Assembly: GCA_002412545.1 (NCBI GenBank)
Contig: DHVG01000001.1
Span: 206,766 to 270,765 of the forward strand
Length of the DNA: 64,000 nt
Reading direction: 5' to 3'
Source of the DNA: Elusimicrobia bacterium UBA5214
Lineage (GTDB): Bacteria > Elusimicrobiota > UBA5214
Both the position numbers and the translations under genes were made by a program. The notes under the pieces are model-generated. The model was not told where the DNA came from. It searched no databases and saw only the letters and a list, made by a program, of their open reading frames with translations. Positions 9,572 through 62,181 of the stretch are shown here, piece after piece; position 1 is the stretch's first letter; each line of letters starts with the position of its first letter.

Positions 9572-9649
9572 TTTTTCTTAAAGTATGCTATTATTACTAC
9601 AATGTCAAATGTCAAAGCCCAAATAACAAATGAAATCCAAATCTGATAA

Positions 9650-9692
9650 ATCCAAATGTCAAAATCCCAATTCCAAAATTTGACATTTGGAT
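9650..9692. repeat. Near-perfect 16-bp inverted repeat (ATCCAAATGTCAAAAT / ATTTTGACATTTGGAT) in the recG-rpmB intergenic region, preceded by direct TGTCAAA repeats
   Basis: Read directly from the sequence. Lies between the divergent recG (minus) and rpmB (plus) starts. Confidence 0.6.
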
Positions 9693-11673: not shown

Positions 11674-12800
11674 TTCTTTATTTCTTCAGCGATAAGTTTA
11701 GCAACACCGGGTTGACCTGCCTCCTCGGCAGGACGAGAAGGACTGCCTAATTTTTTACGCAGGTCAATCAATTCTTGATGTATTTTCTGCCATTCTTGCG
11801 GATTATTCAACCAAGATTCAGCTTTTTCTACAATTTTTTCAGTTTTTATTTTATGCTGAATGAATTCGGGAAAAAGATTTTTGCCAGAAATTATATTCAC
11901 CAATCCGATATAAGGAACTTTTACCAAACTGCGCGCAACAAGATAAAAAAACCAGGTCGTTTTGTAAATGATTATCGTCGGAATACCAAGCAGGGCATTT
12001 TCTAAAGTTGCTGTGCCGGAACAGGCAAAAGCAATCCTAAATTTTTTTCGTTCTTCATAATTTTCATCGTTGACTAAAGAAATATCAACCGGACTTGTTT
12101 TCACCATTTCTTGCAAATAATCAATCGGCATATTTTTTGTCCAAGGAAGAAAAAATCTACTCTCCGGAAATTTTTCTTTAATCATTTTAGCAAGGTTAAA
12201 AAGTAAAGGCAAATGTCGAGAAATGACTGATTTACGACTACCCGGGAGAAGACCGATGTGGCAGTTAATAGTTGATAGTTGATGGTTGATAGCAGGAACA
12301 ATATCAAGTAAGGGGTGACCAAAGAAAACCGTATCTACCCCGGCATCTTGATAAATTTCTTCTTCAAAAGGTAAAATTACAATCATTTTATCAATACACC
12401 GGGCTAATTTTTTTACTCTCCCCGGACGGCTTGCCCAGACCTGTGGACTGATATAATAAATTACCGGGATATTCCGTTTTTTTGCTTCCCGGGCAAGATG
12501 AATATTGAACCCGTAGAAATCAATCGGAATTACACAATCCGGTCTTTCTGCATCAAGGAATTTCAGTACTACCTCTTGGAAAATTCTCCGGAAAAAGAAA
12601 TAATTTTTTATACTGTCTCCTAATCCGAATACTGCTAACTCAACTAAATTGTAAAGAAATTGGTCAGAAACCGACGAGAGATGTAAACCACCCAAAGAAG
12701 AAATTTTTATTTCCGGTAAAATTTTTTTCAATTCCTTAACTAAATTTGCACCATGTAAATCCGCTGAAGTGTCACCAGCTACTAACAGAATTTTTTTCAT
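11658..12800 (-). CDS. lpxB: Lipid-A-disaccharide synthase LpxB
   Basis: N-terminal MKKILLVAGDTSADLHGANLVKEL matches the LpxB (GT19) family. Carries an in-frame AGTTGAT heptamer repeat at 12265-12293. Confidence 0.85.
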   Translation of the reverse strand: MKKILLVAGDTSADLHGANLVKELKKILPEIKISSLGGLHLSSVSDQFLYNLVELAVFGLGDSIKNYFFFRRIFQEVVLKFLDAERPDCVIPIDFYGFNIHLAREAKKRNIPVIYYISPQVWASRPGRVKKLARCIDKMIVILPFEEEIYQDAGVDTVFFGHPLLDIVPAINHQLSTINCHIGLLPGSRKSVISRHLPLLFNLAKMIKEKFPESRFFLPWTKNMPIDYLQEMVKTSPVDISLVNDENYEERKKFRIAFACSGTATLENALLGIPTIIIYKTTWFFYLVARSLVKVPYIGLVNIISGKNLFPEFIQHKIKTEKIVEKAESWLNNPQEWQKIHQELIDLRKKLGSPSRPAEEAGQPGVAKLIAEEIKKCING

Positions 12801-20216: not shown

Positions 20217-23200
20217 TTATTCTTCCCAGCCGAAACGCCAGCGGGGTTCAAGATAAATTTTTCTTTCCGGTGCTGCACTACCCGAAGTAGTTTGTCCTTT
20301 TTCTAATTCGTAAGTTGCCCTCAGGAGCACATCCCCTTTCCAGTGGAAACGATAAGCGAGTTCAAGTTCATGTTTTAAATCAAGACGGTTGACCAAAGTA
20401 TCTAATTTTACGCTGTAACCCAAAAGGACATTTTGTAAGACATATTTCTCAAATGTAACTTTACTGCCCTTAACTAACTCACGCCAATCGGTTGGTAGAG
20501 GAATCTTCTCCGGTGTCATTTCTTTGCCAGTTTCTCGTTCCATTTTTACGGTATCTACCAAGCCAGTGTAACCAAGAATATTTTTTATTAACGGTGTAGT
20601 CAAACTTGTATCTAACCAACGCAATATTTCACGCCGGAAAAGAACCATTTGTTCTTCCTGAGTAAGCGCCGATGTATCTACATTAGCAAAAACATATTTT
20701 AATGCTTTCTCTTGGGTTAATAAAGGATAATTTTTAGAATAAAATTTAGGTTGGGCTTCAACTAATTTACTACGGTCAATGACCATTACTACAGTATCCG
20801 GTGACATTTGTTTACTCTCCGGGTCTAAGACTGAAGTTTTTGTTTCCGCTACCCCTTCAAGATAACAGATATTAGCAATTACTTCAAAAATTGCTTTTTT
20901 TATTTCAAAATTATGGTTCAAATAACTAAGATTGCCCCGTAGTGTTTCAATCTTTCCGTTAACTTTTATTTTGTCTTTATCGGTGGTCAATTTCAAGAAA
21001 CCATTGATATTTGTATCTACTAATTCGTTTTCATACCAGACATTATCTTTAGCTCTAATTTCCAAATTGAAATCAAGGAAGTTAAAGATTTTGTTCCAGG
21101 TTTCATCGGTTTCTTTATCTTTTGGGGGATAGGTAAAATGAGTATTGCTTAATTCAATAATACCATCTAATATTGGTTTGTGTTTTCCTTTGACCATACT
21201 GAGATTAACTTTTATTTCACCTTGGGATGGTGCATAAACTAAACGTTTAAAGACAGTAGAACGCGGAATGACTAAATTTTCCAAAACGATACTTATACCT
21301 TTGGCATTAGTTGATTTCAAAGAAAAAACATAATCTTTTATTTTGAAGTAAGGGAACTCATCCTGGGTAGAAAGAATTAACTCTACTTTTCCATCGGCTT
21401 CAATTTTTCCTTGTCCAATTTTAGCACTTGCCGAACGCAAGAAGATATCTTGTCCACTAAATTCCAATTCAGTATTTAATTCGCTAATTTTTTTTAATCC
21501 ATACTTGGTCTCAATCTCACCGTTAGAAATAGATAAATTACCCTCAATTTGAGGAGAATCGGTGTTTCCTTTGATTATTATTTTACCGTTAATCTTTCCT
21601 TTTGATTCACTAATTTGGGGAGTTATATTCTTTAAAAAGGAAAGGTTTCCTTCTTCTAATGAAAGAGTAAGAATAAATGATTTCAGTCCAAATTTATCTT
21701 TTCCGGTTAGGGGAAGTTCACCAAACCCGCTGAGTGAATATTCCCCGGGAGAATAAACCTTCAAATTGTCAAGAAAAAAAGTATTTTTTTCTAAACGGAA
21801 ACTGGTAGTAAAAGTAGTAAATGATAATTCATATATTTTACTTTTGTTTAAGTTAAATTCACCAGTGATTAAAGGTTGGTGATAAGAACCCTTAGCAAGT
21901 AATTTAAAATTTATTTCTCCTTGGCAAGGAATCTTCTGGTTGGTTAATTCAACTAAATCCGGGAGAGAGAACTTTTCACTATTTAGAGAAAAAGTGAAAT
22001 TGTTTTCTTCAAACATTCCTTGAGCAGTAAGAATTGTTTTTCCTGCTTGAGTTAAATTTAAACTTTTCAAATAAACTTTAGGATATTGGGTAAAATCAAT
22101 TTCACTAGTGAGATTTTGGAATTGTTTCTCAGCAGATAAAAAAGTCAATTTTCTATTTGTGTATTGAATGTAGAATTGCGCTGTTCGAAAATTATGTTGG
22201 TTAATCCAAAAATTATCAGTATTGACTTTTGCCTCAAGAATAAGTTCCTGAGCAGTTTTTATTTCACCATCTAAGTTTAATTTTCCAAATAGAATTAAAT
22301 TTGCCAAATGCAAATTGCGTATTTCGGTAAGAAGAATAAATTTATCTTTTTCAATATATGAACCATCAAGAAAATAAATTTCACTTTCTTTAATCTTAGT
22401 CTGAAACGAATCAAATAAAATTCGTTCTTTTTCGTTATGTAGTTTGAGTTTTGTTTTTTCCAAGATAAGATTTTTGGAGAGAAGAAGTTTCTCACTTTCA
22501 ATTAATCCAGTTAATTTCAGGTAATCACCTTTGAAAACTGAAAGAGGGTCATCTATGTTTAACTTACTTTTTATTTCACCAGAAAAAGGTTCTTGGAAAG
22601 AAAAAGATGTCTCTAACTTTAGAGGTGACCGAAATCCGTCATCTTGGATGGCAGAGCCTTTGAGTAAAAATTTTATCCCCTGCCAGTTTCCTTCTTGAAT
22701 TTTAAATTTACCTTCTAATTTAGGTTGGGACAGTTTACCGGTTAAACTAAAAAACGCATCAAATTTACCATCAGGAGAATATTTATTTTTTCCACCGGAA
22801 GTAATTATTTTTTCTAATCTTTTCAAATCAATAGGTTTAATTTCAAGTGTTCCTTTGATTTCTTCTTTCCCTTGTGGAGAAAAACTCACTTCACTTTCTA
22901 TTTGAGCAAAATCATCAATTGAAGAAAAAAAAGTTAGGTTCTTATTAGCATAATGAATTTTCCCTTGCGCCTTTTCTAAATTTATCTGATTGATTTGTAT
23001 TGGTGAAATTGAAAAATCAGCATCAAGTTCCCCGGAAGAGAATTTATGTGTACCGGTAATGTCTAAAATTCCGTTAAGAAGAGTATTTGACCAAGAAAAA
23101 TTTCTTGCTTCAGTATGAGAAACAAATTTAGAAATATTTAACTGCCGGTCAGTGCTGACTGACTGCCGGTCGGTGCTAACCGACTGCCAGTTAAGTTGGA

Positions 23201-24881
23201 ATGAAAGATTACCTTCTTTTTGTTTAATAAAACACTTATTGAAATTGAAATATTCTTTTGTGTAAATAAAAGAACTTTCTACCTCATCCCAAAATAATTT
23301 TTTCCAGTACCCTTGGTTAATTTTGACATTCGTACTTAGGGTAGGTTTTTCTTTTGTTCCATCATATTCCAAGAAAGCGTAAAATTTACCCTGCAGTTCT
23401 TCTTCGGAATAATCAAGAAAAGTTGAAACCAAATTGAGGTTACTGGAAAGGTTACCTTTAAATAAAGGTTTATTATTCTGAAAAATAAGAGTCCCTTGAA
23501 ATTCTGAAACACCACTTAAATGTTTTTTCCCCGGCACGACAACCGCAAGGAGTAGTTTCTCAATAGATATTTCTTCTGGTTTTCGTTTGGCATTTAATTG
23601 AAATTTATAAATTTGTTTTTTGTCTTTACTTCTAATTTGTAATTTGTCATTTCGGTAAATTATGTCCAGCTCAAACTTATCTAATTCAGGTAGATTTTTA
23701 TTAATTGTGAGATGCTCAATTCTAATTTTACTTTTAATTTGAGGCAGATTAAATCCTTGTCTAAAATCCAGAGAAAGGTTACCGTTTACCTTTCCTTCGT
23801 TAAGGTCAAAGGCTAAGGAGTCAATATTTAGTGTTTTTGACCCGTAATTGATTTCAAATGATAAATTGCTTAATTTTACTTTTTGCCAATTTGAGGGAAT
23901 CACCGCTAAAGAAGCACATTCCACTTTTCCGTTCAAGGAAGGACTTTCATAGGGAGGATATATTTCACCCTTCAGTTTTAAAAATGAATTACCATATTTT
24001 GCTTGACTAATGTTAAAAATACATTTTTCCTTATTAAAATTGATTTCCGCTGAAATCTCGTTCAAATTAAGAGGTAAATCAGTCAGTTCAATTTTAGTTT
24101 TTTCCAAAGAAACTTTTCCTCGGTAATCCCATTGTTTTGGATTTTGCCAATTATTACTCTGGACATCTACGGTAAAACTAACTGTTCCCTGGACCCGCCT
24201 GAGGCGGGTTGACCATTCAGAAAAAGTGAAAGGAAAACTTTTTCCCTCCATCTGGAAAAGAATGTTGTCTCTTTCGGTATAAACTCTACCGTTTAATTTC
24301 CATTCTTTGGAAGTGATTCCATCATTCCCCCAGAAATTAAAGATTATTTTCTTTTCACGGAATAAGAGAAAACCAGTAATATTAGTAATATTCAATCCGG
24401 GCAGTTTGTTGCTTACATCTTCGGTTTTTAAGAGAAAGTTTTTGAAGTGCACTTGGGGAATTGTGAAAATCGGAAGTAAATTCTTTTTTTCTATTGGTGT
24501 CTCACCAAATGAGAAACGGTTAGTAAGAAAGATTTCCCCTTGGTTAAAAGTAAGTTTTTTGATACTTTGGAATGGTTCTTTCCAGTGAACGAGCAGGTTA
24601 ATAATATTGAAACGGAAAGAGATGGTTCTACTTTTTAAAAGAAATCTCTCAGTAGATAACAAATCATAATAAATAGTTACATTATCCAAATAGAAATTGG
24701 TGAAAAAATTTGTCCGCAATTTAGTAAAATTAATCCTTCTTCCAGTACTTTTTTCAATTGATGAAATGAAGTTTTTTACTGGTGGGAATAGTTCAGGTGA
24801 GATACCAATATAAGAAAAATATAAGAAAATACTTCCCGCAAGGGAAAAAAGTAAAATAAAAATGATAGATTTTTTAGCCAA
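20217..24881 (-). CDS. tamB: TamB/AsmA-like giant periplasm-spanning protein (translocation and assembly module)
   Basis: 1554 aa with an N-terminal TM anchor, beta-rich repetitive body and a DUF490-like C-terminus. Adjacent to bamA. Contains an internal 21-nt tandem duplication (STDRQSV x2) at 23141-23190. Confidence 0.65.
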   Translation of the reverse strand: MAKKSIIFILLFSLAGSIFLYFSYIGISPELFPPVKNFISSIEKSTGRRINFTKLRTNFFTNFYLDNVTIYYDLLSTERFLLKSRTISFRFNIINLLVHWKEPFQSIKKLTFNQGEIFLTNRFSFGETPIEKKNLLPIFTIPQVHFKNFLLKTEDVSNKLPGLNITNITGFLLFREKKIIFNFWGNDGITSKEWKLNGRVYTERDNILFQMEGKSFPFTFSEWSTRLRRVQGTVSFTVDVQSNNWQNPKQWDYRGKVSLEKTKIELTDLPLNLNEISAEINFNKEKCIFNISQAKYGNSFLKLKGEIYPPYESPSLNGKVECASLAVIPSNWQKVKLSNLSFEINYGSKTLNIDSLAFDLNEGKVNGNLSLDFRQGFNLPQIKSKIRIEHLTINKNLPELDKFELDIIYRNDKLQIRSKDKKQIYKFQLNAKRKPEEISIEKLLLAVVVPGKKHLSGVSEFQGTLIFQNNKPLFKGNLSSNLNLVSTFLDYSEEELQGKFYAFLEYDGTKEKPTLSTNVKINQGYWKKLFWDEVESSFIYTKEYFNFNKCFIKQKEGNLSFQLNWQSVSTDRQSVSTDRQLNISKFVSHTEARNFSWSNTLLNGILDITGTHKFSSGELDADFSISPIQINQINLEKAQGKIHYANKNLTFFSSIDDFAQIESEVSFSPQGKEEIKGTLEIKPIDLKRLEKIITSGGKNKYSPDGKFDAFFSLTGKLSQPKLEGKFKIQEGNWQGIKFLLKGSAIQDDGFRSPLKLETSFSFQEPFSGEIKSKLNIDDPLSVFKGDYLKLTGLIESEKLLLSKNLILEKTKLKLHNEKERILFDSFQTKIKESEIYFLDGSYIEKDKFILLTEIRNLHLANLILFGKLNLDGEIKTAQELILEAKVNTDNFWINQHNFRTAQFYIQYTNRKLTFLSAEKQFQNLTSEIDFTQYPKVYLKSLNLTQAGKTILTAQGMFEENNFTFSLNSEKFSLPDLVELTNQKIPCQGEINFKLLAKGSYHQPLITGEFNLNKSKIYELSFTTFTTSFRLEKNTFFLDNLKVYSPGEYSLSGFGELPLTGKDKFGLKSFILTLSLEEGNLSFLKNITPQISESKGKINGKIIIKGNTDSPQIEGNLSISNGEIETKYGLKKISELNTELEFSGQDIFLRSASAKIGQGKIEADGKVELILSTQDEFPYFKIKDYVFSLKSTNAKGISIVLENLVIPRSTVFKRLVYAPSQGEIKVNLSMVKGKHKPILDGIIELSNTHFTYPPKDKETDETWNKIFNFLDFNLEIRAKDNVWYENELVDTNINGFLKLTTDKDKIKVNGKIETLRGNLSYLNHNFEIKKAIFEVIANICYLEGVAETKTSVLDPESKQMSPDTVVMVIDRSKLVEAQPKFYSKNYPLLTQEKALKYVFANVDTSALTQEEQMVLFRREILRWLDTSLTTPLIKNILGYTGLVDTVKMERETGKEMTPEKIPLPTDWRELVKGSKVTFEKYVLQNVLLGYSVKLDTLVNRLDLKHELELAYRFHWKGDVLLRATYELEKGQTTSGSAAPERKIYLEPRWRFGWEE

Positions 24882-30845: not shown

Positions 30846-30962
30846 TTTTTGTAATACCTGATTACAACGATTTTTTATAGAGTCCGACTACATGGATTAA
30901 TATCCCGATTACAGTGATAAGTCTTTAACTCATAACTCATAATTCATAACTCATACTTTGAC

Positions 30963-32270: not shown

Positions 32271-33758
32271 TTAGCGGTTTAGCGTGTCAGGACGTAATAA
32301 CGGAAAAGGTATCGTTTCCCGAATTGAAGAAGTATTAGTTAAAAGCATTACTAAACGGTCAATACCAATTCCTAAACCTGCTGCTGGTGGCATACCGTGT
32401 TCTAAAGCGGTAAGGAAATCCTCATCTAAAAGCATTGCTTCCTCATCACCTTTTGCTTTTGCTTTCGCTTGTTCCTCAAGCCGTTTACGCTGTTCTCTCG
32501 GGTCATTAAGTTCGGAGTAAGCATTAGCAATTTCTTCACCAGCAATAAAGAGTTCAAAACGTTCAACTATTTCTGAGTTATCTTTCTTACTTTTTGCTAA
32601 CGGTGTCCACTTCTTTAGATAATCAGTAACAAAAATCGGTTCGCTTGAGGTGATTACCTCTAATTCAGGTAATATTTTCTGGTCAAAAATATAGTCAAAA
32701 ATTTTATGTTCCGGGGTATCGGTTTTGAGTTCAATTCCTAAATCTTTAGCTAATTTTGCTAAGTTTATATCGGGTAAATCTTCTTTTATTCCGATATATT
32801 TTTTGAATAAGTCAGAAAGTTTAACCCGTTGAAAAGGTAGTTTGAGAGAAATCGTTTTATCTTGATACTCAAATTCTTCTTTACCAGTGATTTCTTTTGC
32901 TAAAAAACAAATCATTTCTTCACTGATTCTCATCATTTCTTCATAGTCAACATACGCTTGGTATACTTCCAACATCATAAATTCCGGATTATGTCGGGTA
33001 GAGATACCTTCATTACGGAAATTCTTGTTCAATTCGTATATTTTTTCATAACCAGCGACAAGTAAACGTTTAAGATGGAGTTCCGGAGCAATCCGTAAAT
33101 ATAAATCTACCCCCAAAGCATTATGGTAAGTGGAAAAAGGTTTTGCGGTTGCTCCCCCAGGTAAAACCTGCAACATTGGTGTTTCTACTTCTAAGAAACC
33201 TTTCTGGTCAAGATAATTGCGAATTAAACGAATAACCTTGCTCCGGGTTTCAACAATTTTATTTATTTCCGGGTTGACAATTATATCTAAATACCTTTGC
33301 CGATAACGGGTTTCTACATCTTTAAGTCCATGCCATTTTTCCGGTAAAGGACGTAATGACTTACTTAAAATTTGAAATTTTTCTACTAAAATGGTTAATT
33401 CACCAGTTTTTGTACGGAAAACTTGTCCTTCCACACCTAAAAAATCAGCTAAATCAATCGTTTTCAAAAAAAGGTCATAATTCTCTTTAGCGACAATATC
33501 CTCTCGTAAATAAACTTGTATTTTTCCTTTACTATCTTGAAGATGTAAAAAGGTTGACCGTCCCATTTCCCGTAAAGAAATAATCCGTCCGGCAAAAGAA
33601 ACTTTCTTTTCACTTTTTTCTCCATTTTTTAAGAAACCAAATTCAGTAATCAGATTTTCACTGGAATGGGTTACCGTAAATTTTGTCGGATAAGGGTCAA
33701 TCTTTTTTTCTTCTAAGATTTTTAATTTTTCTTTTCTCTGTTCTATAAGTTTTTCCAT
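32271..33758 (-). CDS. lysS: Lysine--tRNA ligase (class II)
   Basis: N-terminal OB anticodon-binding domain and class II motifs (FRNEG, GIGIDRLVMLL). Confidence 0.9.
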   Translation of the reverse strand: MEKLIEQRKEKLKILEEKKIDPYPTKFTVTHSSENLITEFGFLKNGEKSEKKVSFAGRIISLREMGRSTFLHLQDSKGKIQVYLREDIVAKENYDLFLKTIDLADFLGVEGQVFRTKTGELTILVEKFQILSKSLRPLPEKWHGLKDVETRYRQRYLDIIVNPEINKIVETRSKVIRLIRNYLDQKGFLEVETPMLQVLPGGATAKPFSTYHNALGVDLYLRIAPELHLKRLLVAGYEKIYELNKNFRNEGISTRHNPEFMMLEVYQAYVDYEEMMRISEEMICFLAKEITGKEEFEYQDKTISLKLPFQRVKLSDLFKKYIGIKEDLPDINLAKLAKDLGIELKTDTPEHKIFDYIFDQKILPELEVITSSEPIFVTDYLKKWTPLAKSKKDNSEIVERFELFIAGEEIANAYSELNDPREQRKRLEEQAKAKAKGDEEAMLLDEDFLTALEHGMPPAAGLGIGIDRLVMLLTNTSSIRETIPFPLLRPDTLNR

Positions 33759-33906: not shown

Positions 33907-35038
33907 CTAATGACTTTCGCTCCTCATTCGCCAATCTAAATAGGACTCAATAAACTGGTCAAGTTCACCGTCCATTACTGCGTTAATGTTGCCGGTTTCC
34001 ATTCCGGTGCGATGGTCTTTAACCATCTGGTAAGGCATAAAGATATAAGAACGAATCTGACTACCCCAAGCAATTTCACCTTTCTCATCGTAATGTTTCT
34101 CTAAAGCGAGACGCTGTTTTTCCTTTTCTAACTCGGAGAGTTTTGCTTTTAGGACTTTTAAAGCGGTAATTTTATTTTTATATTGTGAACGTTCATTTTG
34201 GCATTGGACAACAATCCCCGTAGGGAGATGAGTTATTCTTACTGCCGAGTCAGTTTTCTGTAAATGTTGTCCCCCGTGTCCGGAAGCACGGAAGGTATCA
34301 ATTCTTAAATCTTCATCCTTAATTTCAATTTTGATTGTATCTTCTATTTCCGGTAAGACATCGCAGGAAGCAAAAGAGGTATGTCTTCGTTTATTAACAT
34401 CAAAAGGTGAAATGCGCACTAAACGATGGACACCGATTTCTGATTTCAAATAACCGTAAGCATATTCACCTTTGACTAAGAAAGTTACACTTTTTATTCC
34501 CGCTTCTTCACCCGGAGAAAGGTCAGTAATAATTGTCGGATATCCTTTCTTATCTGTCCAACGGAGATACATCCGGAGAAGCATCTCACACCAGTCACAA
34601 GCTTCCGTCCCACCAGCCCCGGCATGTAAAGTCACAATTGCATTGTCTCTATCTTCCGGTTGAGAAAGTTTAAGCCGAAAATCTAAATTATGGATATCTT
34701 TTTCTAAAGTTTTAACTTTTTCTTCAATCTCAGGGAGAAGAATTTTTTCTTCTTCTGGATGTCCACCTACGGCGGATTCGGCAAGTTCAAGAAGTGTTTC
34801 TAATTCTTCAGTTTCTTTTTTAAGTTGATACCAGGGATGGAGGACTTCTTTTAAATTGTTTAATTCCTGAAGGATTTTTTGTGCTTCCAGTGGGTTAGCC
34901 CAGAATTCTGGCTGGTGAGTTTTTTCTTCAAGTTGACGGATATATTTTTCTTTATTTTCAACTTCAAAGGCACCTCCGGAATTTATCTAATTTTTCTTTA
35001 AAAAGATTACTTTTTTCTTCCCATTCTTTTAACATCAT
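33907..35038 (-). CDS. prfB: Peptide chain release factor 2 with programmed +1 ribosomal frameshift (shift site CTT TGA A at 34969-34964 on the minus strand)
   Basis: The frame-0 N-terminal peptide MMLKEWEEKSNLFKEKLDKFRRCL ends at an in-frame TGA preceded by an SD-like GGAGGTG. The +1 frame continues EVENKEKYIRQLEEKTHQPEFWANPLEAQKIL...TLHAGAGGTEACDW. The downstream part carries the GGQ motif (SGHGGQHLQKT). Confidence 0.85.
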
Positions 35039-36701
35039 TTTTTACCTCTTTTTTAATATACAATAAATTTGCCAAAAAAACAAGAGTTATTCCTAAACCT
35101 AACCAAACAAAAAGATCACCGTAAAGGGTATAAAAAGTCATCTTCTTTTGGGGATAAATTTGTTCGGAAAGATCAGCAGTGATAAATATTGGTGTTTGTT
35201 TGATTACTCTTCCATAAGGGTCAATAAATGCAGAAATACCGGTATTGGCAGAGCGAACTACATATCTGCGGTTTTCCACAGCACGGAAAATGTTCATTGT
35301 GAAATGTTGATAAGGAGCAGAAGTTTGTAAAAACCAAGCATCGTTGGTTAAATTAACAATAATTTCTGCACCGTTTTTGACAAAATTGCGTACTAAATGG
35401 GGAAAAATTGCTTCAAAACAGATGTTCACACCAAACTTGGTGAGTGGTGAGTGGCGAGTGGTAAGTGGTAAATTAAAAACCGTAAAGTCTTTGCCGGAAG
35501 AGAAGTCACCGAGTTCGTTAAGGACTTTAATATACTTGGAAAGAAAATCTTTTAAAGGGATAGTTTCGCCAAAAGGGACAGGATGGATTTTATCATATTC
35601 GGCAAGTAATTTTCCTTCTGGTGAGAAAAGAAATACTGAATTATAGAGTTTATCTTTTTTGTAATGGACTGAGCCGATAAGATGGTAACAATTACTCTGT
35701 TGAATAATCTTTTTTACCTGTTCATAAAGATGTCGTTCATAAAGAAGATATCCGGGAATAGCACTTTCGGGCCAGATTATCAAAGAGGGTGATTGGGTAA
35801 TTCGGTGATTAGGTGATTGGGGATTAGGAATGGATAAGCGAGTAGTTTGTTTGATGAGATTTTCGTAAGTGTCCATAATTTCTTTTTCATATTCTTTTGA
35901 CCATTTTTTGTATTGGTCAATGTTGCCTTGAAGTAAAACTACCATAAGTGGTGAGTGATTAGTGGTTAGTGGTGATTGGTGAGTGGTGTGTGGTGAAAGG
36001 ACCAAAAACCCATAGACCAAACAAAATAAAAAAACAGTTAAAGTAGGTAAAACTATTCTTATTTTTTCTCGCCACTTCCCACTTCCCGCCTCCCACAACC
36101 TAAATAAGGTAGTGTTTACTAAAACAATAAGGAAGGATACACCGTAGACACCGGTAAATTCAGAAATTTGTATAACCGGTAAAAAATTCCATTGGGTATA
36201 GCCGAGTAAAGCCCAAGGGAAACCAGTAAAAAGATGACTGCGGAGATATTCTAAGGAAACCCAGAGAAAAGCAGAAAATAAGTTGATAGTTGGTAGTGGA
36301 TAGTGGATAGTGAAAAGACGGAAACAAAGAGTAAAAAATCCAAAATAAAGAGCGAGATAGGCGGATAAAAGGATAAGACAAAGAATGCCAAGGAATAAAG
36401 ATTCGCCAGCAGTGGTAATGGTAGTAACAATCCAATAGAGTAAACCTAAATATGCAAGAAAACCCGTCAAAAAACCTAAAATAAAAGCACTTTTAGGAGA
36501 TGAATTTTCAATTGCTAAAAAAAGTGGAATTAAAGCAACCCAAGCAAGAGGGAAAAGGTTAAATTTAGGAAAACTTAGAATAAGCAGGAAAGTGGAAAGT
36601 AAAAGATAAACCCTGCCCTTTTGTTTAGAAAAGTTTTGTTTTTGGGGGATAACTTTTGTGAATTTGTCATATATCTTAAACAAAGGGGCGGGGCATTTCA
36701 T
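35007..36701 (-). CDS. lnt: Apolipoprotein N-acyltransferase Lnt (with several in-frame heptamer-repeat insertions)
   Basis: Multi-TM N-terminal domain plus a C-terminal CN-hydrolase domain with the catalytic Cys context GVNICFEAIFP. Repeat-encoded segments PLTTNHSPLTTNHSPL, SPNHRITQSPS and HHSPLTKF occur within the ORF. Confidence 0.75.
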   Translation of the reverse strand: MKCPAPLFKIYDKFTKVIPQKQNFSKQKGRVYLLLSTFLLILSFPKFNLFPLAWVALIPLFLAIENSSPKSAFILGFLTGFLAYLGLLYWIVTTITTAGESLFLGILCLILLSAYLALYFGFFTLCFRLFTIHYPLPTINLFSAFLWVSLEYLRSHLFTGFPWALLGYTQWNFLPVIQISEFTGVYGVSFLIVLVNTTLFRLWEAGSGKWREKIRIVLPTLTVFLFCLVYGFLVLSPHTTHQSPLTTNHSPLMVVLLQGNIDQYKKWSKEYEKEIMDTYENLIKQTTRLSIPNPQSPNHRITQSPSLIIWPESAIPGYLLYERHLYEQVKKIIQQSNCYHLIGSVHYKKDKLYNSVFLFSPEGKLLAEYDKIHPVPFGETIPLKDFLSKYIKVLNELGDFSSGKDFTVFNLPLTTRHSPLTKFGVNICFEAIFPHLVRNFVKNGAEIIVNLTNDAWFLQTSAPYQHFTMNIFRAVENRRYVVRSANTGISAFIDPYGRVIKQTPIFITADLSEQIYPQKKMTFYTLYGDLFVWLGLGITLVFLANLLYIKKEVKNDVKRMGRKK

Positions 36702-48958: not shown

Positions 48959-49748
48959 TTTCAATTAACATCCATTTTTTATTAACCTTGCCTTTCCTTG
49001 ATTTTGAAGGATAAAGGTTAATCAATGATGTTTTTTTAACCGCCTTCAGCAAAGGCACGAGCTCTTTATCAGGCACCCCTGCACTTTCAAGCACAAAGCC
49101 GATTCTCTTTGCTGTTGCGACATCAGGAAACCTCAGAGCATATCTTTTAAGCTTTCCTGCATCTATTTTCCTATTTTTTATCTGTTCTTTTAATATCTCA
49201 AATGCTTTTTTCATGCCTCCGATGGGGTCAGGAAAATAAACCAGGTCAACAAGAGTTCTCTCCCGGTCACTCACTATCACCCCGGTATCCTTGATTCTGA
49301 TTTTTTTAAGACCATACATCCTTTTCTGGGAAATCTTAACCATTTTAAAACGCATGCTGCCGATTACCTTTTCCCTCTGCAAAGAGGTATTTAGTATGTA
49401 CATCACCTGAAAAATTTGGTCAGTAAAGCCATAGTAGTTATACATAGGTGAATAACCGATGTAATAATTGTCTTTGGGAAAGAAAACTGAAGGAATAAGA
49501 AATTCATTGATATTGCTTCCGGCAGGTCCTGCCTCAAGAGGCGAATAAAGATAAACACCCTTCTTTATCTTTTTCAGGATGCCCTGCCTGTTGAGCCTGA
49601 AAAGTATTTTTTCCCTTGCCTTCTTAGGAAATCTAAAGTATCTGCCAAACTGCTCCAGGGTTACTATCGAAACCTTTTCGTAGGCAAGTCTTGCAATGAC
49701 TTTTTTTTCCCTGGGACTTAAATATTGCATTGTATTATTTTTTACCAT
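48948..49748 (-). CDS. abiEi: AbiEi-family type IV toxin-antitoxin antitoxin / transcriptional regulator (apparently orphaned)
   Basis: N-terminal wHTH-like segment (LSPREKKVIARLAYEKVSIVTLEQFGRYF). Immediately upstream of, and overlapping, an AbiEii-like remnant. The gene is about 45% GC against about 33% in its flanks. Confidence 0.5.
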   Translation of the reverse strand: MVKNNTMQYLSPREKKVIARLAYEKVSIVTLEQFGRYFRFPKKAREKILFRLNRQGILKKIKKGVYLYSPLEAGPAGSNINEFLIPSVFFPKDNYYIGYSPMYNYYGFTDQIFQVMYILNTSLQREKVIGSMRFKMVKISQKRMYGLKKIRIKDTGVIVSDRERTLVDLVYFPDPIGGMKKAFEILKEQIKNRKIDAGKLKRYALRFPDVATAKRIGFVLESAGVPDKELVPLLKAVKKTSLINLYPSKSRKGKVNKKWMLIENAS

Positions 49749-54711: not shown

Positions 54712-55298
54712 TCACTTCGGCTTGGTATTTTTCGTTCAGAAGCACCAGTAACGGTGCCGAAACCATATATCGTACGATGTAAAATATCACGGGATAAAAT
54801 ATTCCAAAGCTCCTCCCGTGCATCTTCTTCAGTAATACCTCCGGGTAATGTCGGGGCAAGAAAACGATATACACCTTCAAGATTTTTTTCTTCCCAGAGC
54901 GGTTCTTCTTTATCTTTTTCGTAAAGGGCAAGGTCAAAAATTACCCAGAGTTTATATTCTTTAACAACAAAATCAGCAGTATAAGTTAGCGGTTCAAGTA
55001 CATAACGAGTGATTTCACCCTTGATTAGAGCATCAGCATTTTCTTCTTTAGTAATTTCTAACCGTCCGTCACGAAGAAATTCTTCAATTACTCTTAAAGT
55101 AAACTTTTCCTCAATTCCATAGTAAATAGTTTTATTTTCAAAAGTAGGAATTACAATCTTCTTTATGTTGGGCGGTAGAATTTGAGGAGCGGGCATATAA
55201 CCGGCACAACCAATTAAACCAATAACCAATAACCAACAACCAATAACCAGCGAGATTTTTTTCATTTGTTTTTCCTCCCGATATTTATTGAGTAACAA
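54708..55298 (-). CDS. lptE: LPS-assembly lipoprotein LptE-like
   Basis: Lipobox LIGCAG and about 190 aa. Sits between leuS and holA, as in the conserved leuS-lptE-holA operon. Its signal peptide region carries a CCAATAA heptamer repeat. Confidence 0.5.
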   Translation of the reverse strand: MLLNKYREEKQMKKISLVIGCWLLVIGLIGCAGYMPAPQILPPNIKKIVIPTFENKTIYYGIEEKFTLRVIEEFLRDGRLEITKEENADALIKGEITRYVLEPLTYTADFVVKEYKLWVIFDLALYEKDKEEPLWEEKNLEGVYRFLAPTLPGGITEEDAREELWNILSRDILHRTIYGFGTVTGASERKIPSRSE

Positions 55299-57861
55299 TA
55301 TTTACTAACTTTTTACGAATATGGATAATTTTATTTATTTTTTTGTTAGAGAGATAATTTTGTACTTTTGTTTCGTTCAGGACTTTTTCTTCAGTTTCCT
55401 TTTCCGTAAGCAGAGAGTCAACTTTTATTCTCGTCCGTAATTTGCCATCAATCTGAACCGCAATTTCAATTTCCTCCGAAGTCAATAATTGAGAATTATA
55501 TTCTGGCCAAGGAAGATAATCAAGTTCCAATTTATCAGAAGCAAATTTTTCCCATAACTCGTTGCTTAAATGCGGAGCAAAAGGATGGAGAAGGAGAATT
55601 AAATTTTTTATTGTTTCTCGCGATGTGTTATCACCAAGATAATTATAACGATAAAGAAAATTGACTAATTCCATAATTGCCGCAATTGCCGTATTGAACT
55701 GTATTCTTTTTTCAATATCTTCAGTAACCCGTTTGATAGTCAAATTTGTCAAACGAACAAGTTCCTTAGTTTCAGGTTTCAGGTTACCGGTTTCAGGTTT
55801 TTTCTCTCCACTTGTAACTTGTAACTTGTAACTTGTAACTTGATTTACTAAGCGGTATACGCGGTTCAAGAAACGCCAGCAACCTTCAATACCTTGTTCT
55901 GACCATTCTAAATCCTTTTCCGGTGGACTGGCAAAGAGGATAAAAAGTCGTAAAGCATCAACACCATATTTTTCAATCATTGTTTCCGGCTCAACAACAT
56001 TTCCTCTTGATTTGGACATCGCTAAACCGCCGAGGGTAACCATCCCTTGGGTAAGCAGATTAGTAAAAGGTTCATCACAGGTTACTAAGTTCAAATCACG
56101 CATTACTTTATGAAAGAAACGGGCATAAATCAAATGCATACAAGCATGTTCAATTCCACCGACATACTGGTTCACCGGTAGCCAGGGATTAACTTTATCC
56201 GCAGCGAAAGGTAGCTCATTATTCTTCGGGTCACAATAACGAGCATAATACCACGAAGAATCAACAAAAGTATCCATCGTATCGGTTTCCCGACGAGCAG
56301 GTGAATTACATTTCGGACATTTAGTTTCTACAAATTCTTTTACCTTAGTGAGCGGTGATTCTCCGGTACCGGTAAAAGGGACATCTTTGGGTAAGGTTAC
56401 CGGTAAATTTTCTTCTTTTTCCGGAACGATTCCACATTGTTCACAGTAAATCATCGGTATTGGTGTTCCCCAGTATCTCTGTCGTGAGATTAGCCAATCT
56501 TTAATCCGGTATTCAACCTTTCTTTTCCCGAGATTTTTATTTTCTAACCAGCGGATAATTTTTTCTTTACCTTCGTTTGAATCAAGACCATTGAATTCAC
56601 CGGAATTGACCATTATTCCTTCACCTTCATAAACTTGGTGATTAGGTAATTGGGTTATTAGGTGATTAGGTGATTGAGTGATTAGGTTATTAGGTGACTG
56701 ACCGGATGGACGGATAACTTCACGAATCGGAAGATTATATTTCTTTGCAAAATCAAAATCTCTCTGGTCATGAGCGGGAACAGACATAATTGCTCCGGTA
56801 CCATATTCCATGGTTACATAATCAGCAATAAAAACTGGTATTTTTTCGTTATTTACCGGATTAATTGCAAAGATTCCTTCTAATTTTATGCCGGTTTTTT
56901 CAGTTGTCCTTTCCTGGATATTTTTTTGCCGGCATTTTGCTATGTATTTTTTCACTTCGTTATAGTTCTTAATATTTGATTCTAAATTTTTTCCACCCGA
57001 GGCGGATCCGCCTTTGGCGGAAATTATTGGATGTTCCGGAGCAAGAACCATAAAAGTTGCTCCAAATAAAGTATCCGGTCTAGTAGTAAAAACGGTAATT
57101 GTATAATTAGGTGATTGCTCGCCCGCCGTAGCTTTAGCGAAGGCGGGGGTGATTGGGAAATTAACTAAGACACCTTCACTTTCACCAATCCAATTTTTTT
57201 GCATTAAAATTACGCGTTCCGGCCAACCCGATTTTAATTTTTCTAAATCGGCAAGCAATTCTTGAGCATAAGCACGAATACGGAAAAACCATTGTTCAAG
57301 TTCTTTCTGCTCAACAAGGAAATTGCAACGCCAGCATTCACCACTTGCTGAAACTTGTTCATTAGCTAATACGGTTTGACAAGAAGGGCACCAGTTCACC
57401 GCTGATTTTGCGCGGTAGACTAACCCTTTTTCATAAAATTTTAAAAAAAACCATTGATTCCATTTGTAATATACAGGTTCACAAGTAGCAATTTCTCGTG
57501 TCCAATCATAGGATATCCCCAGATTTTTTAATTGTTTACGCATCTGGGTAATGTTATCTTTTGTCCATTGGGAAGGACTTATTTGCCGTTGAATAGCGGC
57601 ATTTTCTGCTGGCATTCCGAAAGCATCCCAGCCGATTGGATGAAGGACATTGTATCCTTTTCTTCTTTTGTAGCGGGCTAACACATCTCCAATAAGATAA
57701 TTTCGTGCATGTCCCATATGTATTTTCCCTGAAGGATAAGGATACATTACTAAACAATAATAGTTTTTCTTTTTCGGGTCAGGATGTAGGTTATATATTC
57801 CTTCCTCCTGCCAAATTTTTTGCCATTTAGATTCTATTTTCTTGAAATCGTATTTATCCAT
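55285..57861 (-). CDS. leuS: Leucine--tRNA ligase
   Basis: HIGH-region motif (PYPSGKIHMGHARNY), KMSKS (LAMSKSRGN), and CP1 editing domain. Carries two in-frame repeat insertions (see findings). Confidence 0.95.
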   Translation of the reverse strand: MDKYDFKKIESKWQKIWQEEGIYNLHPDPKKKNYYCLVMYPYPSGKIHMGHARNYLIGDVLARYKRRKGYNVLHPIGWDAFGMPAENAAIQRQISPSQWTKDNITQMRKQLKNLGISYDWTREIATCEPVYYKWNQWFFLKFYEKGLVYRAKSAVNWCPSCQTVLANEQVSASGECWRCNFLVEQKELEQWFFRIRAYAQELLADLEKLKSGWPERVILMQKNWIGESEGVLVNFPITPAFAKATAGEQSPNYTITVFTTRPDTLFGATFMVLAPEHPIISAKGGSASGGKNLESNIKNYNEVKKYIAKCRQKNIQERTTEKTGIKLEGIFAINPVNNEKIPVFIADYVTMEYGTGAIMSVPAHDQRDFDFAKKYNLPIREVIRPSGQSPNNLITQSPNHLITQLPNHQVYEGEGIMVNSGEFNGLDSNEGKEKIIRWLENKNLGKRKVEYRIKDWLISRQRYWGTPIPMIYCEQCGIVPEKEENLPVTLPKDVPFTGTGESPLTKVKEFVETKCPKCNSPARRETDTMDTFVDSSWYYARYCDPKNNELPFAADKVNPWLPVNQYVGGIEHACMHLIYARFFHKVMRDLNLVTCDEPFTNLLTQGMVTLGGLAMSKSRGNVVEPETMIEKYGVDALRLFILFASPPEKDLEWSEQGIEGCWRFLNRVYRLVNQVTSYKLQVTSGEKKPETGNLKPETKELVRLTNLTIKRVTEDIEKRIQFNTAIAAIMELVNFLYRYNYLGDNTSRETIKNLILLLHPFAPHLSNELWEKFASDKLELDYLPWPEYNSQLLTSEEIEIAVQIDGKLRTRIKVDSLLTEKETEEKVLNETKVQNYLSNKKINKIIHIRKKLVNIVTQ

Positions 57862-57882
57862 TATTGCTTAATACAAATTTTT

Positions 57883-57928
57883 ATTCGTGTATATTCGTGT
57901 ATCTTTTTACATTCGTGTGTATTCGTGT
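57883..57928. promoter_or_regulatory. Four direct copies of ATTCGTGT (spacings 10, 18 and 10) immediately upstream of the leuS start
   Basis: Read directly from the sequence. The same heptamer family occurs upstream of mcsA (29181-29245) and inside tlyA (58975-59045). Confidence 0.4.
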
Positions 57929-58579
57929 TTATTTAATTGTCATTAATGCTTGGGCAACATATTGTTTGACTTGTTCGTCTTTTAGACCTAATAATAATGC
58001 CGGTACTGCTGGACGACCGATATTACCTAATGCTTCGGCAGCGTAACGACGGACAAAATCGTTTTCATCTTTAAGTGAACGATACAATGACGGTATTGCT
58101 CGCGGGTCAGCGATACAACCCAAGGCAATAGCTGCTTTCATTCGTGCTACTGCACTCGGGTCTTCCAGAGATTTAATTAAAGCCGGAACCGCTAAACGGT
58201 CACGCAGATGTCCCAAAACACCCGCTACCGTAATTCTCACTTCTTCACTCTCATCATGTAAAGTTTCAATCAATGCTGGAACTGCTTTATGTTCTCCGAT
58301 ATACCCTAAAGCAATCGCTGCTTTTTCTCGGACATATTTTGAAGGGTCTTTAAGCGAGAGTATAAGTTGGTCAACTGCTTTCTTTTCTTTCATTCTTCCG
58401 AGTACTTCTGCAGATACTGCCCGCACAAATGGTTCCCTATCTTTCAAACTGTCAACCAAAGCAACATTAGTTTTCTTTTTCAATTCTTCTTCCACACTAA
58501 CCGGTACTCTTTTTGGAGCAAAGATGATTTTCATTCCTTCTTTGAGCCATTCTCCACCGACAAAACGTATTTTTTTCAT
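57929..58579 (-). CDS. HEAT-repeat (PBS-lyase type) protein
   Basis: Tandem repeats of about 31 aa of the form ...R..AA.ALG.IG...AVP.LI..L.D....VR..AA.AL... Confidence 0.7.
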   Translation of the reverse strand: MKKIRFVGGEWLKEGMKIIFAPKRVPVSVEEELKKKTNVALVDSLKDREPFVRAVSAEVLGRMKEKKAVDQLILSLKDPSKYVREKAAIALGYIGEHKAVPALIETLHDESEEVRITVAGVLGHLRDRLAVPALIKSLEDPSAVARMKAAIALGCIADPRAIPSLYRSLKDENDFVRRYAAEALGNIGRPAVPALLLGLKDEQVKQYVAQALMTIK

Positions 58580-58622: not shown

Positions 58623-59456
58623 TTATTTCTCCATTGCAATTAGATATTCTGTGTTACCTTTTGGTCCTTTTAATGGCGAAGGAATTATTCCAGATATTCC
58701 CAACCCTAAATTTTGCATAAATTTTTTTATTTTTTCAATAACTTCATCCTGAATTTTTTTATCTTTAACTACTCCCTTTTTGACTTTATCTTTTCCTGCT
58801 TCAAATTGTGGTTTAATCAAAGCAATAATTTTACTTTTTTCCTTTAACAATTCGCAGACCCTCGGCAAGACTTTTTCTAAAGAAATGAAAGAAACATCAA
58901 TGGTTACTAAGTCGGGGAGAAGAGAGTTGAGAGTGGAGAGTGGATAGTGGATAGTTTTAGGGTTGAGAGTTGAAGAGATTCGTGGGGATTCGTGTTCAAT
59001 AATTCGAGGTAATTCGTTTTCTATAATTAGTGCCAATTCGTGTTTACCAAAGTAACGGATATTAGTTTTTTCAATATTTACTACCCGTGGGTTGTTTCTC
59101 AACGACCAGTCAAGTTGTCCGTAACCCACATCTAAGGCATAAACCAATTTTGCACCGTGTTTCAATAAACAATCAGTAAAACCGCCGGTTGATGCACCGA
59201 CATCAAGACAGATTTTATCTTTTGCTTCAATATTAAAGAAAGAAAGTGCTTTTTCTAATTTTAAACCTCCGCGGGATACATAAGGGAACCTTTTCCTGAC
59301 TTCAATTTTAGAGTCGGGGTCAATTAATTTGGATGGTTTACTAATTTTTTCTTGGTTAACATAAATTTCACCAGCAAGGATAAGTCTTTCCGCTTTATTG
59401 CGTGTGTTAACTAACCTTTTCGTTACTAATAATTTATCTAACCTTTCTTTTCCCAC
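58623..59456 (-). CDS. tlyA: TlyA-family rRNA 2'-O-methyltransferase (S4 domain plus FtsJ-like methyltransferase)
   Basis: N-terminal S4 motif (RLDKLLVTKRLVNTRNKAERLILAGEIYVN), then an AdoMet-binding motif (LDVGASTGGFTD). Contains an insertion of about 125 nt of tandem repeats (58921-59045). Confidence 0.8.
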   Translation of the reverse strand: MGKERLDKLLVTKRLVNTRNKAERLILAGEIYVNQEKISKPSKLIDPDSKIEVRKRFPYVSRGGLKLEKALSFFNIEAKDKICLDVGASTGGFTDCLLKHGAKLVYALDVGYGQLDWSLRNNPRVVNIEKTNIRYFGKHELALIIENELPRIIEHESPRISSTLNPKTIHYPLSTLNSLLPDLVTIDVSFISLEKVLPRVCELLKEKSKIIALIKPQFEAGKDKVKKGVVKDKKIQDEVIEKIKKFMQNLGLGISGIIPSPLKGPKGNTEYLIAMEK

Positions 59457-61330: not shown

Positions 61331-62181
61331 TTCTTCCTTGTGCTAACCAGGTCAGCAAATTCTTTTAAAATTTTTCCTCTTGGACCAAAAATTTTCAGTG
61401 CTTTTTTCGCTTCCATAGTCAATTCTTTGATTCTCTTCTTAGTTTGTTTTATACCAAAAATTCGTGGATAAGTCCATAGTTTCATTTCTTTTTGCTGTTT
61501 ATAGTCAATAAGGTCATCACCGATCTGGAATGCTAAACCAATATTTTCACCGTATTTTTCTAAAGCACGTAATTGGTCTGATTTTGCTCCGGAAAGTAAA
61601 GCGCCGATTTTAAGACAAACTTTAATCAAGGCACCGGTTTTCTTCCGATAAATTTTTTCTAACTTTGAACTTTGAACTTTGAACTTTGAACTTAAGGTAA
61701 TATCCATTACCTGTCCACCAATCATTCCTTCTCCACCACAAGCGTAAGATACTTCTTTTAACACTTGTTTGAGTGAACCTGCTTCTTTTGTAGTTTCCGC
61801 GAGTATTTCAAATGCTTTAGTAAGTAAAGCATCACCAGCAAGGATTGCTAATGCTTCACCGAATTTTTTATGAGAAGAAAGTTTACCGCGACGGAAATCG
61901 TCATTATCTAAAGCGGGTAAATCGTCATGAATCAAAGAAAAAGTATGAATCATTTCCAAAGCACAAGCAGCCGGAAGGACATTTTCTATTTTTCCACCAA
62001 CCGATTCACTGGCGGCAAGCACAAGTAGAGGACGAAGACGTTTGCCACCGTCTAAAAGAGAATAGGCCATTACTTTGTAAAGTAAAGAATTTGAACGTAT
62101 ATATTTTTTTAATTCTTTTTCTAATAAAGGTAAATTTTTCTTCCAGAAAAAATTTAATCTCTCCATTTTTTTCTGCACCAT
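61327..62181 (-). CDS. ispA: Polyprenyl synthetase (farnesyl/geranylgeranyl diphosphate synthase, IspA-like)
   Basis: First Asp-rich motif (LIHDDLPALDNDDFRRG) and second Asp-rich motif (GLAFQIGDDLID). Contains a CTTTGAA/AACTTTG heptamer repeat at 61660-61692. Confidence 0.85.
   Translation of the reverse strand: MVQKKMERLNFFWKKNLPLLEKELKKYIRSNSLLYKVMAYSLLDGGKRLRPLLVLAASESVGGKIENVLPAACALEMIHTFSLIHDDLPALDNDDFRRGKLSSHKKFGEALAILAGDALLTKAFEILAETTKEAGSLKQVLKEVSYACGGEGMIGGQVMDITLSSKFKVQSSKLEKIYRKKTGALIKVCLKIGALLSGAKSDQLRALEKYGENIGLAFQIGDDLIDYKQQKEMKLWTYPRIFGIKQTKKRIKELTMEAKKALKIFGPRGKILKEFADLVSTRKK

Follow-up and report, generated by a model that had tools for sequence, protein, structure and literature searches.

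The leucyl-tRNA synthetase gene (leuS) of Elusimicrobia bacterium UBA5214 is carried on the minus strand of a 64,000-nucleotide (nt) stretch of contig DHVG01000001.1 (assembly GCA_002412545.1; this whole stretch, with a GC content of 36%, is hereafter called the window) and contains tandem repeats with units of 7 and 8 nt. How can units with lengths not divisible by three persist in an essential coding sequence, and did they arise in place or, as an earlier note on this DNA had proposed, arrive as copies of a dispersed micro-element? The leuS tracts are nothing unusual in this lineage, which has a whole population of such arrays, with units of 7 or 8 nt and typically about four or seven copies. 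Slippage-type local turnover of arrays, passed through a filter of reading frame, stop codons and protein tolerance, probably accounts for them and is favoured over a mobile micro-element.

Repeat tracts in the leuS gene and its protein

The host open reading frame (ORF) encodes a bacterial leucyl-tRNA synthetase (LeuRS), as indicated by its match to T. thermophilus LeuRS (1h3n; phmmer E=5e-264). Pfam places the editing domain (PF13603) at amino acids (aa) 222-440 and Anticodon_1 at aa 699-819, and the AlphaFold2 (AF2) model (pLDDT 84.7, pTM 0.82) was superposed on E. coli LeuRS (4aq7) with a TM of 0.88. The protein was aligned with LeuRS of the four closest relatives (P0002-P0005, 70-80% identical to that of the window; their DNA is denoted L001-L004), with 57 more distant orthologs and with the T. 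thermophilus enzyme, and arrays were called by Tandem Repeats Finder (TRF). Compared with the typical length of 817 aa, the LeuRS of the window has about 41 aa more, and this surplus is confined to four sites, A to D. Sites A, B and C lie within the CP1 editing domain, while site D is the linker directly N-terminal to the anticodon-binding domain as delimited by Pfam. The features of the gene and the four protein sites, with segment lengths compared to the medians of the 57 orthologs, are as follows.

55285..57861, minus strand: leuS coding sequence, 858 aa, host of the repeats (ORF, phmmer, Pfam, AF2)
55769..55800, minus strand: array D2, GTTTCAG on the plus strand and CTGAAAC on the coding strand, 4.6 copies (TRF, 84% matches)
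55810..55842, minus strand: array D1, ACTTGTA on the plus strand and TACAAGT on the coding strand, 4.7 copies (TRF, 100% matches, score 66)
56637..56701, minus strand: array C, GGTGATTA on the plus strand and TAATCACC on the coding strand, 7.6 copies (TRF, period 8, 79% matches)
56992..57021, no strand assigned: 30-nt GC-rich double hairpin TCCGCCAAAGGCGGATCCGCCTCGGGTGGA (GC island; fold -10.9 kcal/mol, z -3.0)
57094..57156, minus strand: site A array, four CAATCACC-like octamers of AATCACC type, split by a hairpin (codon alignment)
57118..57147, no strand assigned: 30-nt GC-rich inverted repeat CCCGCC...GGCGGG within the site A array (motif match at 57122-57147)
Site A, about aa 236-257: AATCACC-type array split by the GC-rich hairpin, segment 24 aa, ortholog median 14
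Site B, aa 281-290: GC-rich double hairpin, segment 23 aa, ortholog median 13
Site C, aa 387-410: octamer array, segment 33 aa, ortholog median 17
Site D, aa 674-698: two heptamer arrays, segment 46 aa, ortholog median 38

The AF2 model falls below a pLDDT of 50 in four stretches only (aa 241-250, 284-290, 392-404 and 681-693), which match the four sites and are all coil. The extra segments are absent or far shorter in the 57 orthologs, and they lie inside or beside known domains without forming a new one. A canonical LeuRS insertion domain, that is, a conserved folded module of the CP1 or leucine-specific kind, was ruled out by the coil conformation, the pLDDT below 50 and the absence or shortness of the segments in orthologs. 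The earlier note had set against its own claim the possibility that the inserts merely coincide with variable LeuS regions present in relatives without DNA repeats. Part of this holds, in that the loops at sites A to D are length-variable in other lineages as well (among the 57 orthologs), but the extra length and the DNA periodicity are specific to this lineage.

The two repeat tracts that had been described in leuS are both real: TRF recovered arrays at 55769-55800, 55810-55842 and 56637-56701, and the two peptides quoted for them are encoded by the 858-aa ORF, so the tracts are translated in frame. The account of their structure needs revision, however. The first tract had been given as (ACTTGTA)x4 with a GGTTTCAGGTT duplication; the ACTTGTA array is present, with 4.7 copies, but the supposed duplication is itself a heptamer array (D2). 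The second tract had been read as heptamers and instead has a period of 8 (GGTGATTA, 7.6 copies), or, better described, a 24-nt super-period in 2.7 copies (TRF, 87% matches). A third array, of AATCACC type, and two GC-rich hairpins had been missed. The term insertion suits the editing-domain segment (33 against 17 aa) but fits the first tract less well, as the site D segment (46 against 38 aa) is just about 3 aa longer than its T. thermophilus counterpart. Alignment to orthologs, which had been proposed as a check, maps the inserts to loops of the CP1 editing domain and to the linker before the anticodon-binding domain.

Array D1 encodes QVTSYKLQVTS (aa 674-684), and its unit is free of stop codons in all three frames while its reverse complement is not. 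The codon alignment shows it to be common to the window, L001 and L004 and missing in L002 and L003. Array D2 encodes KPETGNLKPET (aa 688-698), just N-terminal to Anticodon_1, and in its deviant unit GGT (window) or TGT (L001) takes the position where TGA would be in frame. D1 and D2 are imperfectly complementary to each other (55769-55842): the plus-strand DNA folds at -8.7 kcal/mol (z -2.4, with 5 of 200 shuffles as good), and for the mRNA strand the fold does not surpass that of shuffles (z -1.06).

Array C encodes GQSPNNLITQSPNHLITQLPNHQ (aa 387-410) in an editing-domain loop, and each third octamer opens with CAA rather than TAA. Neither strand of this array folds better than shuffles, which rules out hairpin-driven slippage as its origin. 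The site A array stands just before the TTRPDT motif of the editing domain, with GGTGATT words at 57110 and 57148. All four relatives carry (AATYACC)x4 heptamers at this site (by TRF, CCAATCA in 4.3 copies with 100% matches in L003, and CCAATTA in L002 and L004), and the array therefore predates the clade.

Each array and each hairpin insert of leuS spans a multiple of 3 nt and leaves the reading frame open. In translational bypass of the Magnusiomyces byp or T4 gene 60 type, the insert breaks the frame or carries stops and must be skipped. Such bypass, or intein-like removal, was ruled out because each insert here is open, a multiple of 3 nt and free of stops.

Probable local turnover of arrays and a proposed coding filter

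The window contains ten period-7 arrays with a TRF score of at least 40, against none in 30 dinucleotide-preserving shuffles; thus, they are not due to chance. An Rfam scan of the whole window gave no match. Periods of 7 (and 8) dominate in the window, in its relatives and in a second clade described below. Orthologs of leuS in the clade have one to five arrays each, and 21 of 28 arrays with 7- or 8-nt units in the window and L001-L004 are read through by an ORF, compared to 40 of 273 in other phyla.

The arrays appear to change their units in place. At site C the coding-strand unit is TAATCACC in the window, CCAATCAC in L001, AACCGTT in L003 and GTCCAAT in L004. The leuS genes of L003 and L004 are 90% identical at the nucleotide level, yet their site C units differ at four of seven positions in every copy while the arrays are equal in length, and the first unit in L004, CCGTCCA, is intermediate between the two. 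Homogenised divergence of this kind, with an edge unit of intermediate sequence, is what would be expected if a tandem array evolved in concert and in place. No array site is the same in L003 and L004 despite 90% gene identity, and in the leuS codon alignment one array tends to be replaced by another at a given site, in place of a clean pattern of gain or absence. A repeat domain maintained at the protein level was ruled out, as sister species carry unrelated peptides at these sites. Three conspecific assemblies have identical LeuRS tracts, as do the members of two other 90% clusters (a small sample). Because no variation in array length was seen within these three 90%-identity LeuRS clusters, the arrays are not hypermutable in the manner of contingency loci.

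The units that survive in coding DNA fit local coding requirements, being T-rich and hydrophobic-coding in the LptE signal peptide and polar-coding in loops. LptE orthologs have other T-rich hydrophobic-coding units at the same place (TTACTGG in L003, CTTTACA in L001 and L002). With a period coprime to 3, each of the three phases of the unit is translated, so that only units lacking a stop in every phase are tolerated. Stop-free units in all three frames account for 34 of 40 coding arrays, and the number would be 12 of 40 were the units inverted. In the window arrays whose consensus unit does contain a stop (the octamer and CTGAAAC), the deviations fall exactly where that stop would be in frame. 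By copy number, the heptamer arrays of the clade comprise 17 in the 4.x class, one in 5.x, none in 6.x and three in 7.x, compared to 60, 16, 11 and 4, respectively, for other, mostly non-coding arrays (Fisher p=0.023). This clustering at 4.x and 7.x fits frame-preserving steps of three units.

These features can be accommodated by a simple scheme. Arrays would arise and turn over locally at the DNA level, by strand slippage or unequal exchange, and those that survive in coding regions would be the ones that keep the frame through net changes of three units (21 or 24 nt), hold no in-frame stop and lie where the protein tolerates any flexible peptide. In LeuRS, two loops within the CP1 editing domain would qualify, as would the linker preceding the anticodon-binding domain. 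Reading a period coprime to 3 in all phases yields a peptide repeat of seven or eight residues, such as YKLQVTS, KPETGNL or SPNHLITQ. Slippage would be the generating process, and the repeat peptides are most likely passengers without function.

A second, unrelated clade shows the same phenomenon. A metagenome search with LeuRS, aimed at close strains and their copy-number polymorphism, gave relatives at up to 58% identity among the matches listed; a set of 80 leuS loci from it (460 kb), whose LeuRS are 48-58% identical to that of the window, served as an unbiased control. It contains 38 period-7 arrays, mostly from one clade with a GC content of about 41% and LeuRS about 50% identical to the window's (L157-L191). 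Its arrays occupy the same LeuRS loops (window-equivalent aa 385-404 and 676-701) plus aa 546-558, and are also found 2-8 nt past the leuS stop codon, as (AGCAAAG)n and (AAAGTTC)n, and in the LptE signal peptide. The units are unrelated to those of the window, and the arrays at site D add no length. Several members carry a GC-rich insert encoding PPTHPSPSRGEGKGGG at site C.

Further arrays of the window comprise five in an lnt-like gene (35007-36701; Pfam LNT_N and CN_hydrolase), two in a TlyA-like methyltransferase gene, and one each in LpxB, UvrC, IspA and the LptE signal peptide. Those with mapped units or positions are listed here.

12263..12292, minus strand: LpxB heptamer array, AGTTGAT on the plus strand and ATCAACT on the coding strand, 4.3 copies (TRF, Pfam LpxB, in-frame translation)
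35438-35469, 36072-36096 and 36281-36312, minus strand: remaining lnt arrays (TRF, in-frame translation)
35788..35828, minus strand: lnt octamer array, GGTGATTA in 5.2 copies, encoding PNPQSPNHRITQSP in the interdomain linker (TRF, translation, Pfam)
35947..35996, minus strand: lnt heptamer array, AGTGGTG on the plus strand and CACCACT on the coding strand, 7.1 copies (TRF, in-frame translation)
55217..55249, minus strand: array in the core of the LptE signal peptide, AACCAAT on the plus strand and ATTGGTT on the coding strand, 4.7 copies, LVIGCWLLVIGL (TRF, Pfam LptE)
58922..59044, minus strand: TlyA-like methyltransferase arrays, a heptamer in 7.3 copies (58922-58973) and a 24-nt repeat (58988-59044) (TRF)
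61661..61693, minus strand: IspA-like heptamer array, AACTTTG on the plus strand and CAAAGTT on the coding strand, 4.7 copies (TRF, 100% matches)

The TlyA-like gene of the window is 13 codons longer than those of L001 and L002, and L002 has (CCTTACC)x2.9 at that site. The IspA array is length-neutral with respect to the L002 ortholog, with 12 codons in both. Arrays were also observed in spacers. A 10-nt-period array, TATTCGTGTA in 5.4 copies, occupies the spacer that separates the upstream gene from the start codon of leuS (57882-57933), and its CACGAAT core recurs in the TlyA-like 24-nt array about 1 kb away. Spacers between minus-strand genes hold an AATGTCA or 14-nt array (9601-9679) and (TAACTCA)x4.3 (30926-30955), one base from the published TAACTGA repeat discussed below.

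Recurrence of the AATCACC unit and rival explanations

Several observations weigh against slippage-type turnover as the whole explanation. Growth by one unit at a time from one or two to four or five copies passes through frameshifted, presumably lethal intermediates in an essential gene, so that the arrays need either multi-unit jumps or copying from elsewhere. The mode at about four copies holds in non-coding arrays too, where frame cannot explain it, and length-neutral arrays (IspA, and site D of the second clade) are not predicted by pure expansion. Site D occurs in two forms, one in the window, L001 and L004 and the other in L002 and L003; since L003 and L004 are sisters, this distribution is incongruent with the tree. 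Within the segment (window positions 55765-55845) the nucleotide identity of L004 is 0.80-0.87 to the window and L001 and 0.36-0.75 to its 90%-identical sister L003, and the first form is 95% identical between the window and L001, compared to 82% gene-wide. The incongruence suggests inter-lineage recombination or an old dimorphism.

The recurrence of one unit also exceeds what independent slippage predicts. AATCACC-type units, found at site A in all five genomes, at site C in two, at site D in L003 and in lnt of the window, make up about 9 of the 28 arrays of the clade. Exact arrays of the octamer (pattern AATCACCTAATCACCNAAT, in species-representative genomes) were found in at least 120 genome stretches (L005-L124) from many phyla, against a rough uniform-random expectation of about 17, and about 10% of additional, unselected arrays in the matched genomes belong to the AATCACC family.

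Phyla among the matches listed include Chloroflexota, Bacteroidota, Omnitrophota, Armatimonadota, candidate-phyla-radiation (CPR) groups, cyanobacteria, Burkholderiales and others, and some (AATCACCT)n arrays reach more than 10 perfect units. A perfect array of this unit has stops in each of the six frames, so that these arrays are presumably intergenic. Among the 123 arrays listed, an inverted array, (GTGAYT)x2, lies within 150 nt on the 5' side in 21 cases and on the 3' side in one; a long ORF starts within 60 nt downstream in 58 cases on the AATCACCT strand and in 38 on the other. ATCACCT matches the 3' end of 16S rRNA, and its complement an extended Shine-Dalgarno sequence. These observations suggest a special status for the AATCACC(T) unit. 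A protein search with (QSPNHLIT)x5 gave one weak match among 276 candidates, the 40-aa query being too short, against 5.8 billion sequences, to find arrays of two or three units.

The strongest rival holds that preformed blocks of about 30 nt, mainly of AATCACC(T), are written or gene-converted into new sites, with in-frame blocks in tolerant loops surviving. Preformed blocks would sidestep the lethal frameshifted intermediates, and the array blocks (about 30-33 nt) and the GC-rich hairpin inserts (27-33 nt) are of similar size. The spread of exact octamer arrays over phyla, and a tree-incongruent site D cassette that is nearly the same DNA in distant genomes, would also follow. The factual basis on which the earlier note had preferred a dispersed micro-element over slippage stands up: the unit of the second leuS tract is present in lnt (35788-35828), where the array shares with array C an identical 16-nt stretch, CAATCACCTAATCACC, and likewise has CAA instead of TAA in every third unit, and AATCACC/GGTGATT does recur in unrelated genes, namely in lnt and at three leuS sites across five genomes.

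The preference itself, however, is not supported for the arrays. Comparison of six AATCACC-type arrays revealed no common flanks, which the note had suggested looking for, and no terminal inverted repeats or target-site duplications. GGTGATT words number 18 in the window against 8.5 expected, but the excess lies in arrays and isolated words are at chance level. The units of most arrays are unrelated, vary by species and track local coding requirements, and the differences between orthologous arrays are homogenised substitutions, the edge unit being intermediate. None of the 43 arrays with 7- or 8-nt units in the unbiased set of 80 leuS loci is of AATCACC type, and in viral contigs, the only sequences in which composition-matched control octamers were scanned, AATCACCT-unit matches are weakly enriched (7 against 3, 2 and 2). 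A dispersed micro-element is thus an unlikely source of the arrays, though it may have a part in how they are seeded.

It is the GC-rich hairpins, not the arrays, that bear the hallmarks of dispersed micro-elements. The hairpin at 57118-57147 encodes PAFAKATAGE (aa 239-248), is flanked on both sides by GGTGATTG and is absent from L001-L004. The double hairpin at 56992-57021 encodes SAKGGSASGG (aa 281-290) in frame at site B. A copy identical at 29 of 30 positions stands at the same leuS site of L003 (10694-10723), though the genes are 74% identical, and a further copy lies in the L003 tlyA region (8770-8799), while the leuS genes of L001, L002 and L004 lack it. This double hairpin looks like a dispersed micro-element or a site-specific recurrent insertion.

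More GC-rich islands with hairpin potential were observed in ORFs of the window (10243-10279, 11705-11737, 23141-23188, 24182-24215 and 49519-49543), for example ACCCGCCTGAGGCGGGT in a TamB-like gene and a 21-nt repeat in 2.3 copies at 23141-23188; they are probably further in-frame hairpin inserts. A 14-nt hairpin, GAGGT(AATC/GATT)ACCTC, with GGTGATTA as its core, is truly dispersed: it occurs four to five times in L001 (9169-9196, 14869-14882, 16188-16201 and 16611-16624) and in the window at 32647-32660, with a further window site at 22519-22530, and it is found in both orientations and in different frames, twice in MurJ in two frames, inverted in UvrC and in tandem in an intergenic spacer. 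This counts in favour of the micro-element account, and the core common to hairpin and array hints that direct and inverted duplication of one seed are linked.

Such a link would be explained if the arrays came not from ordinary stepwise slippage but from a dedicated, sequence-preferring process that writes or overwrites patches of about 30 nt, each with about four copies of a 7- or 8-mer, in many uncultured lineages, with AATCACCT as a favoured template. The same process, acting in inverted fashion, would give small hairpins with the same core, such as GAGGTGATTACCTC. If real, it would be the single cause of the leuS tracts, the length-neutral arrays, the four-copy mode of non-coding arrays and the tree-incongruent cassettes. 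The proposal is speculative and its truth is doubtful.

A selected function, with the peptides serving as flexible linkers or interaction sites or with a role at the RNA or DNA level, for example through the imperfect hairpin of site D, appears quite improbable. Between the window and L001 the site D cassette is as conserved in its DNA as the catalytic motifs are, its arrays are partly complementary with a plus-strand fold at z -2.4, the tracts are identical in three conspecific assemblies, and the cross-phylum octamer arrays lean toward gene starts (58 of the 123 on the AATCACCT strand, compared to 38 on the opposite one). The peptides, however, are predicted to be disordered, sister species replace them with unrelated sequences, and the arrays occur in proteins as unrelated as LeuRS, Lnt, TlyA, IspA, LpxB and UvrC and in a signal peptide; at the RNA level, the site D mRNA fold is unremarkable (z -1.06) and array C does not fold.

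An assembly or sequencing artefact is scarcely conceivable: mis-assembly of short repeats does occur, and the DNA comes from a metagenome-assembled genome, but the tracts are identical in three independent assemblies, orthologous arrays occur in four related genomes from different projects, and the reading frame is intact across every array.

Significance and relation to known repeat systems

Selection would be expected to remove non-triplet units from coding DNA. Here, in at least two uncultured lineages, it is mainly through such units that essential, slowly evolving proteins vary in length. The arrays amount to an experiment by nature, showing where LeuRS, Lnt, TlyA, LptE and other proteins have loops that accept arbitrary peptides. 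They also represent a new route to disordered segments, unlike that of triplet units, as one 7-mer is read in three frames. The tracts inflate protein length and give low-confidence model segments, and could mislead alignment, phylogeny and the annotation of insertion domains in metagenome-assembled genomes. Should a mechanism underlie the cross-phylum recurrence of AATCACC(T), a mutational or repair process not yet described would be indicated.

Contingency loci are in-ORF repeats in which frequent one-unit changes switch non-essential surface genes of host-adapted pathogens. The arrays described here share with them the location in ORFs and a unit that is not a multiple of three, but they lie in essential genes, have identical tracts in three conspecific assemblies and were seen only in frame-preserving states. 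Rickettsia palindromic elements are reportedly in-frame, selfish palindromic inserts (Ogata et al. in 2000), and small dispersed repeats of cyanobacteria were reportedly described by Elhai et al. in 2008. The GC-rich hairpins resemble both in being short, tolerated in conserved genes, at surface positions and present or absent among orthologs; at 12-33 nt, however, they are much shorter than the Rickettsia elements. The tandem arrays differ from palindromic elements altogether, with no palindrome, no consensus beyond the unit and no common ends.

The repeats of Borgs (PMC9879509) are likewise in ORFs, fast-evolving and independently arising, and form disordered segments, as do the insert sites here with their pLDDT below 50. 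All in-ORF Borg units have lengths divisible by three (PMC9879509), whereas the units here are of 7 or 8 nt, are read in all three phases, keep the frame in three-unit steps and lie in bacterial core genes.

TAACTGA direct repeats are known from marine Beggiatoaceae, cyanobacteria and Bacteroidetes in 2-6 or more copies, often just upstream of start codons, and occur in distantly related phyla without an evident transfer mechanism (PMC4679880). The (AATCACCT)n arrays similarly span phyla and lean toward gene starts. Their unit is different, and TAACTGA repeats are almost all intergenic, the in-ORF cases being only reversed copies in small hypothetical genes (PMC4679880).

The closest precedent is the excess of heptanucleotide simple sequence repeats (SSRs) in some prokaryotes, for which polymerase slippage is the established explanation (Mrazek et al. 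2007, as summarised in PMC4679880 and PMC4692102). According to these summaries, such SSRs consist of head-to-tail units of 5-11 nt in at least three copies, with period 7 dominant and in some lineages only, all of which applies to the present arrays. Heptamers of Xanthomonas and Nostoc are reported to favour about four units (PMC4692102), as the present arrays do. The same summaries describe long SSRs as over-represented between genes and under-represented in coding regions, while 21 of the 28 arrays here lie in ORFs, essential housekeeping genes included, and the units are A/C/T-rich and stop-free rather than G-rich. A literature search found no paper on 7- or 8-nt arrays as a regular feature of essential genes, nor on the exact repeat strings. 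The excess of heptanucleotide SSRs and its explanation by slippage are established, and the arrays described here extend that class to the coding DNA of essential genes.

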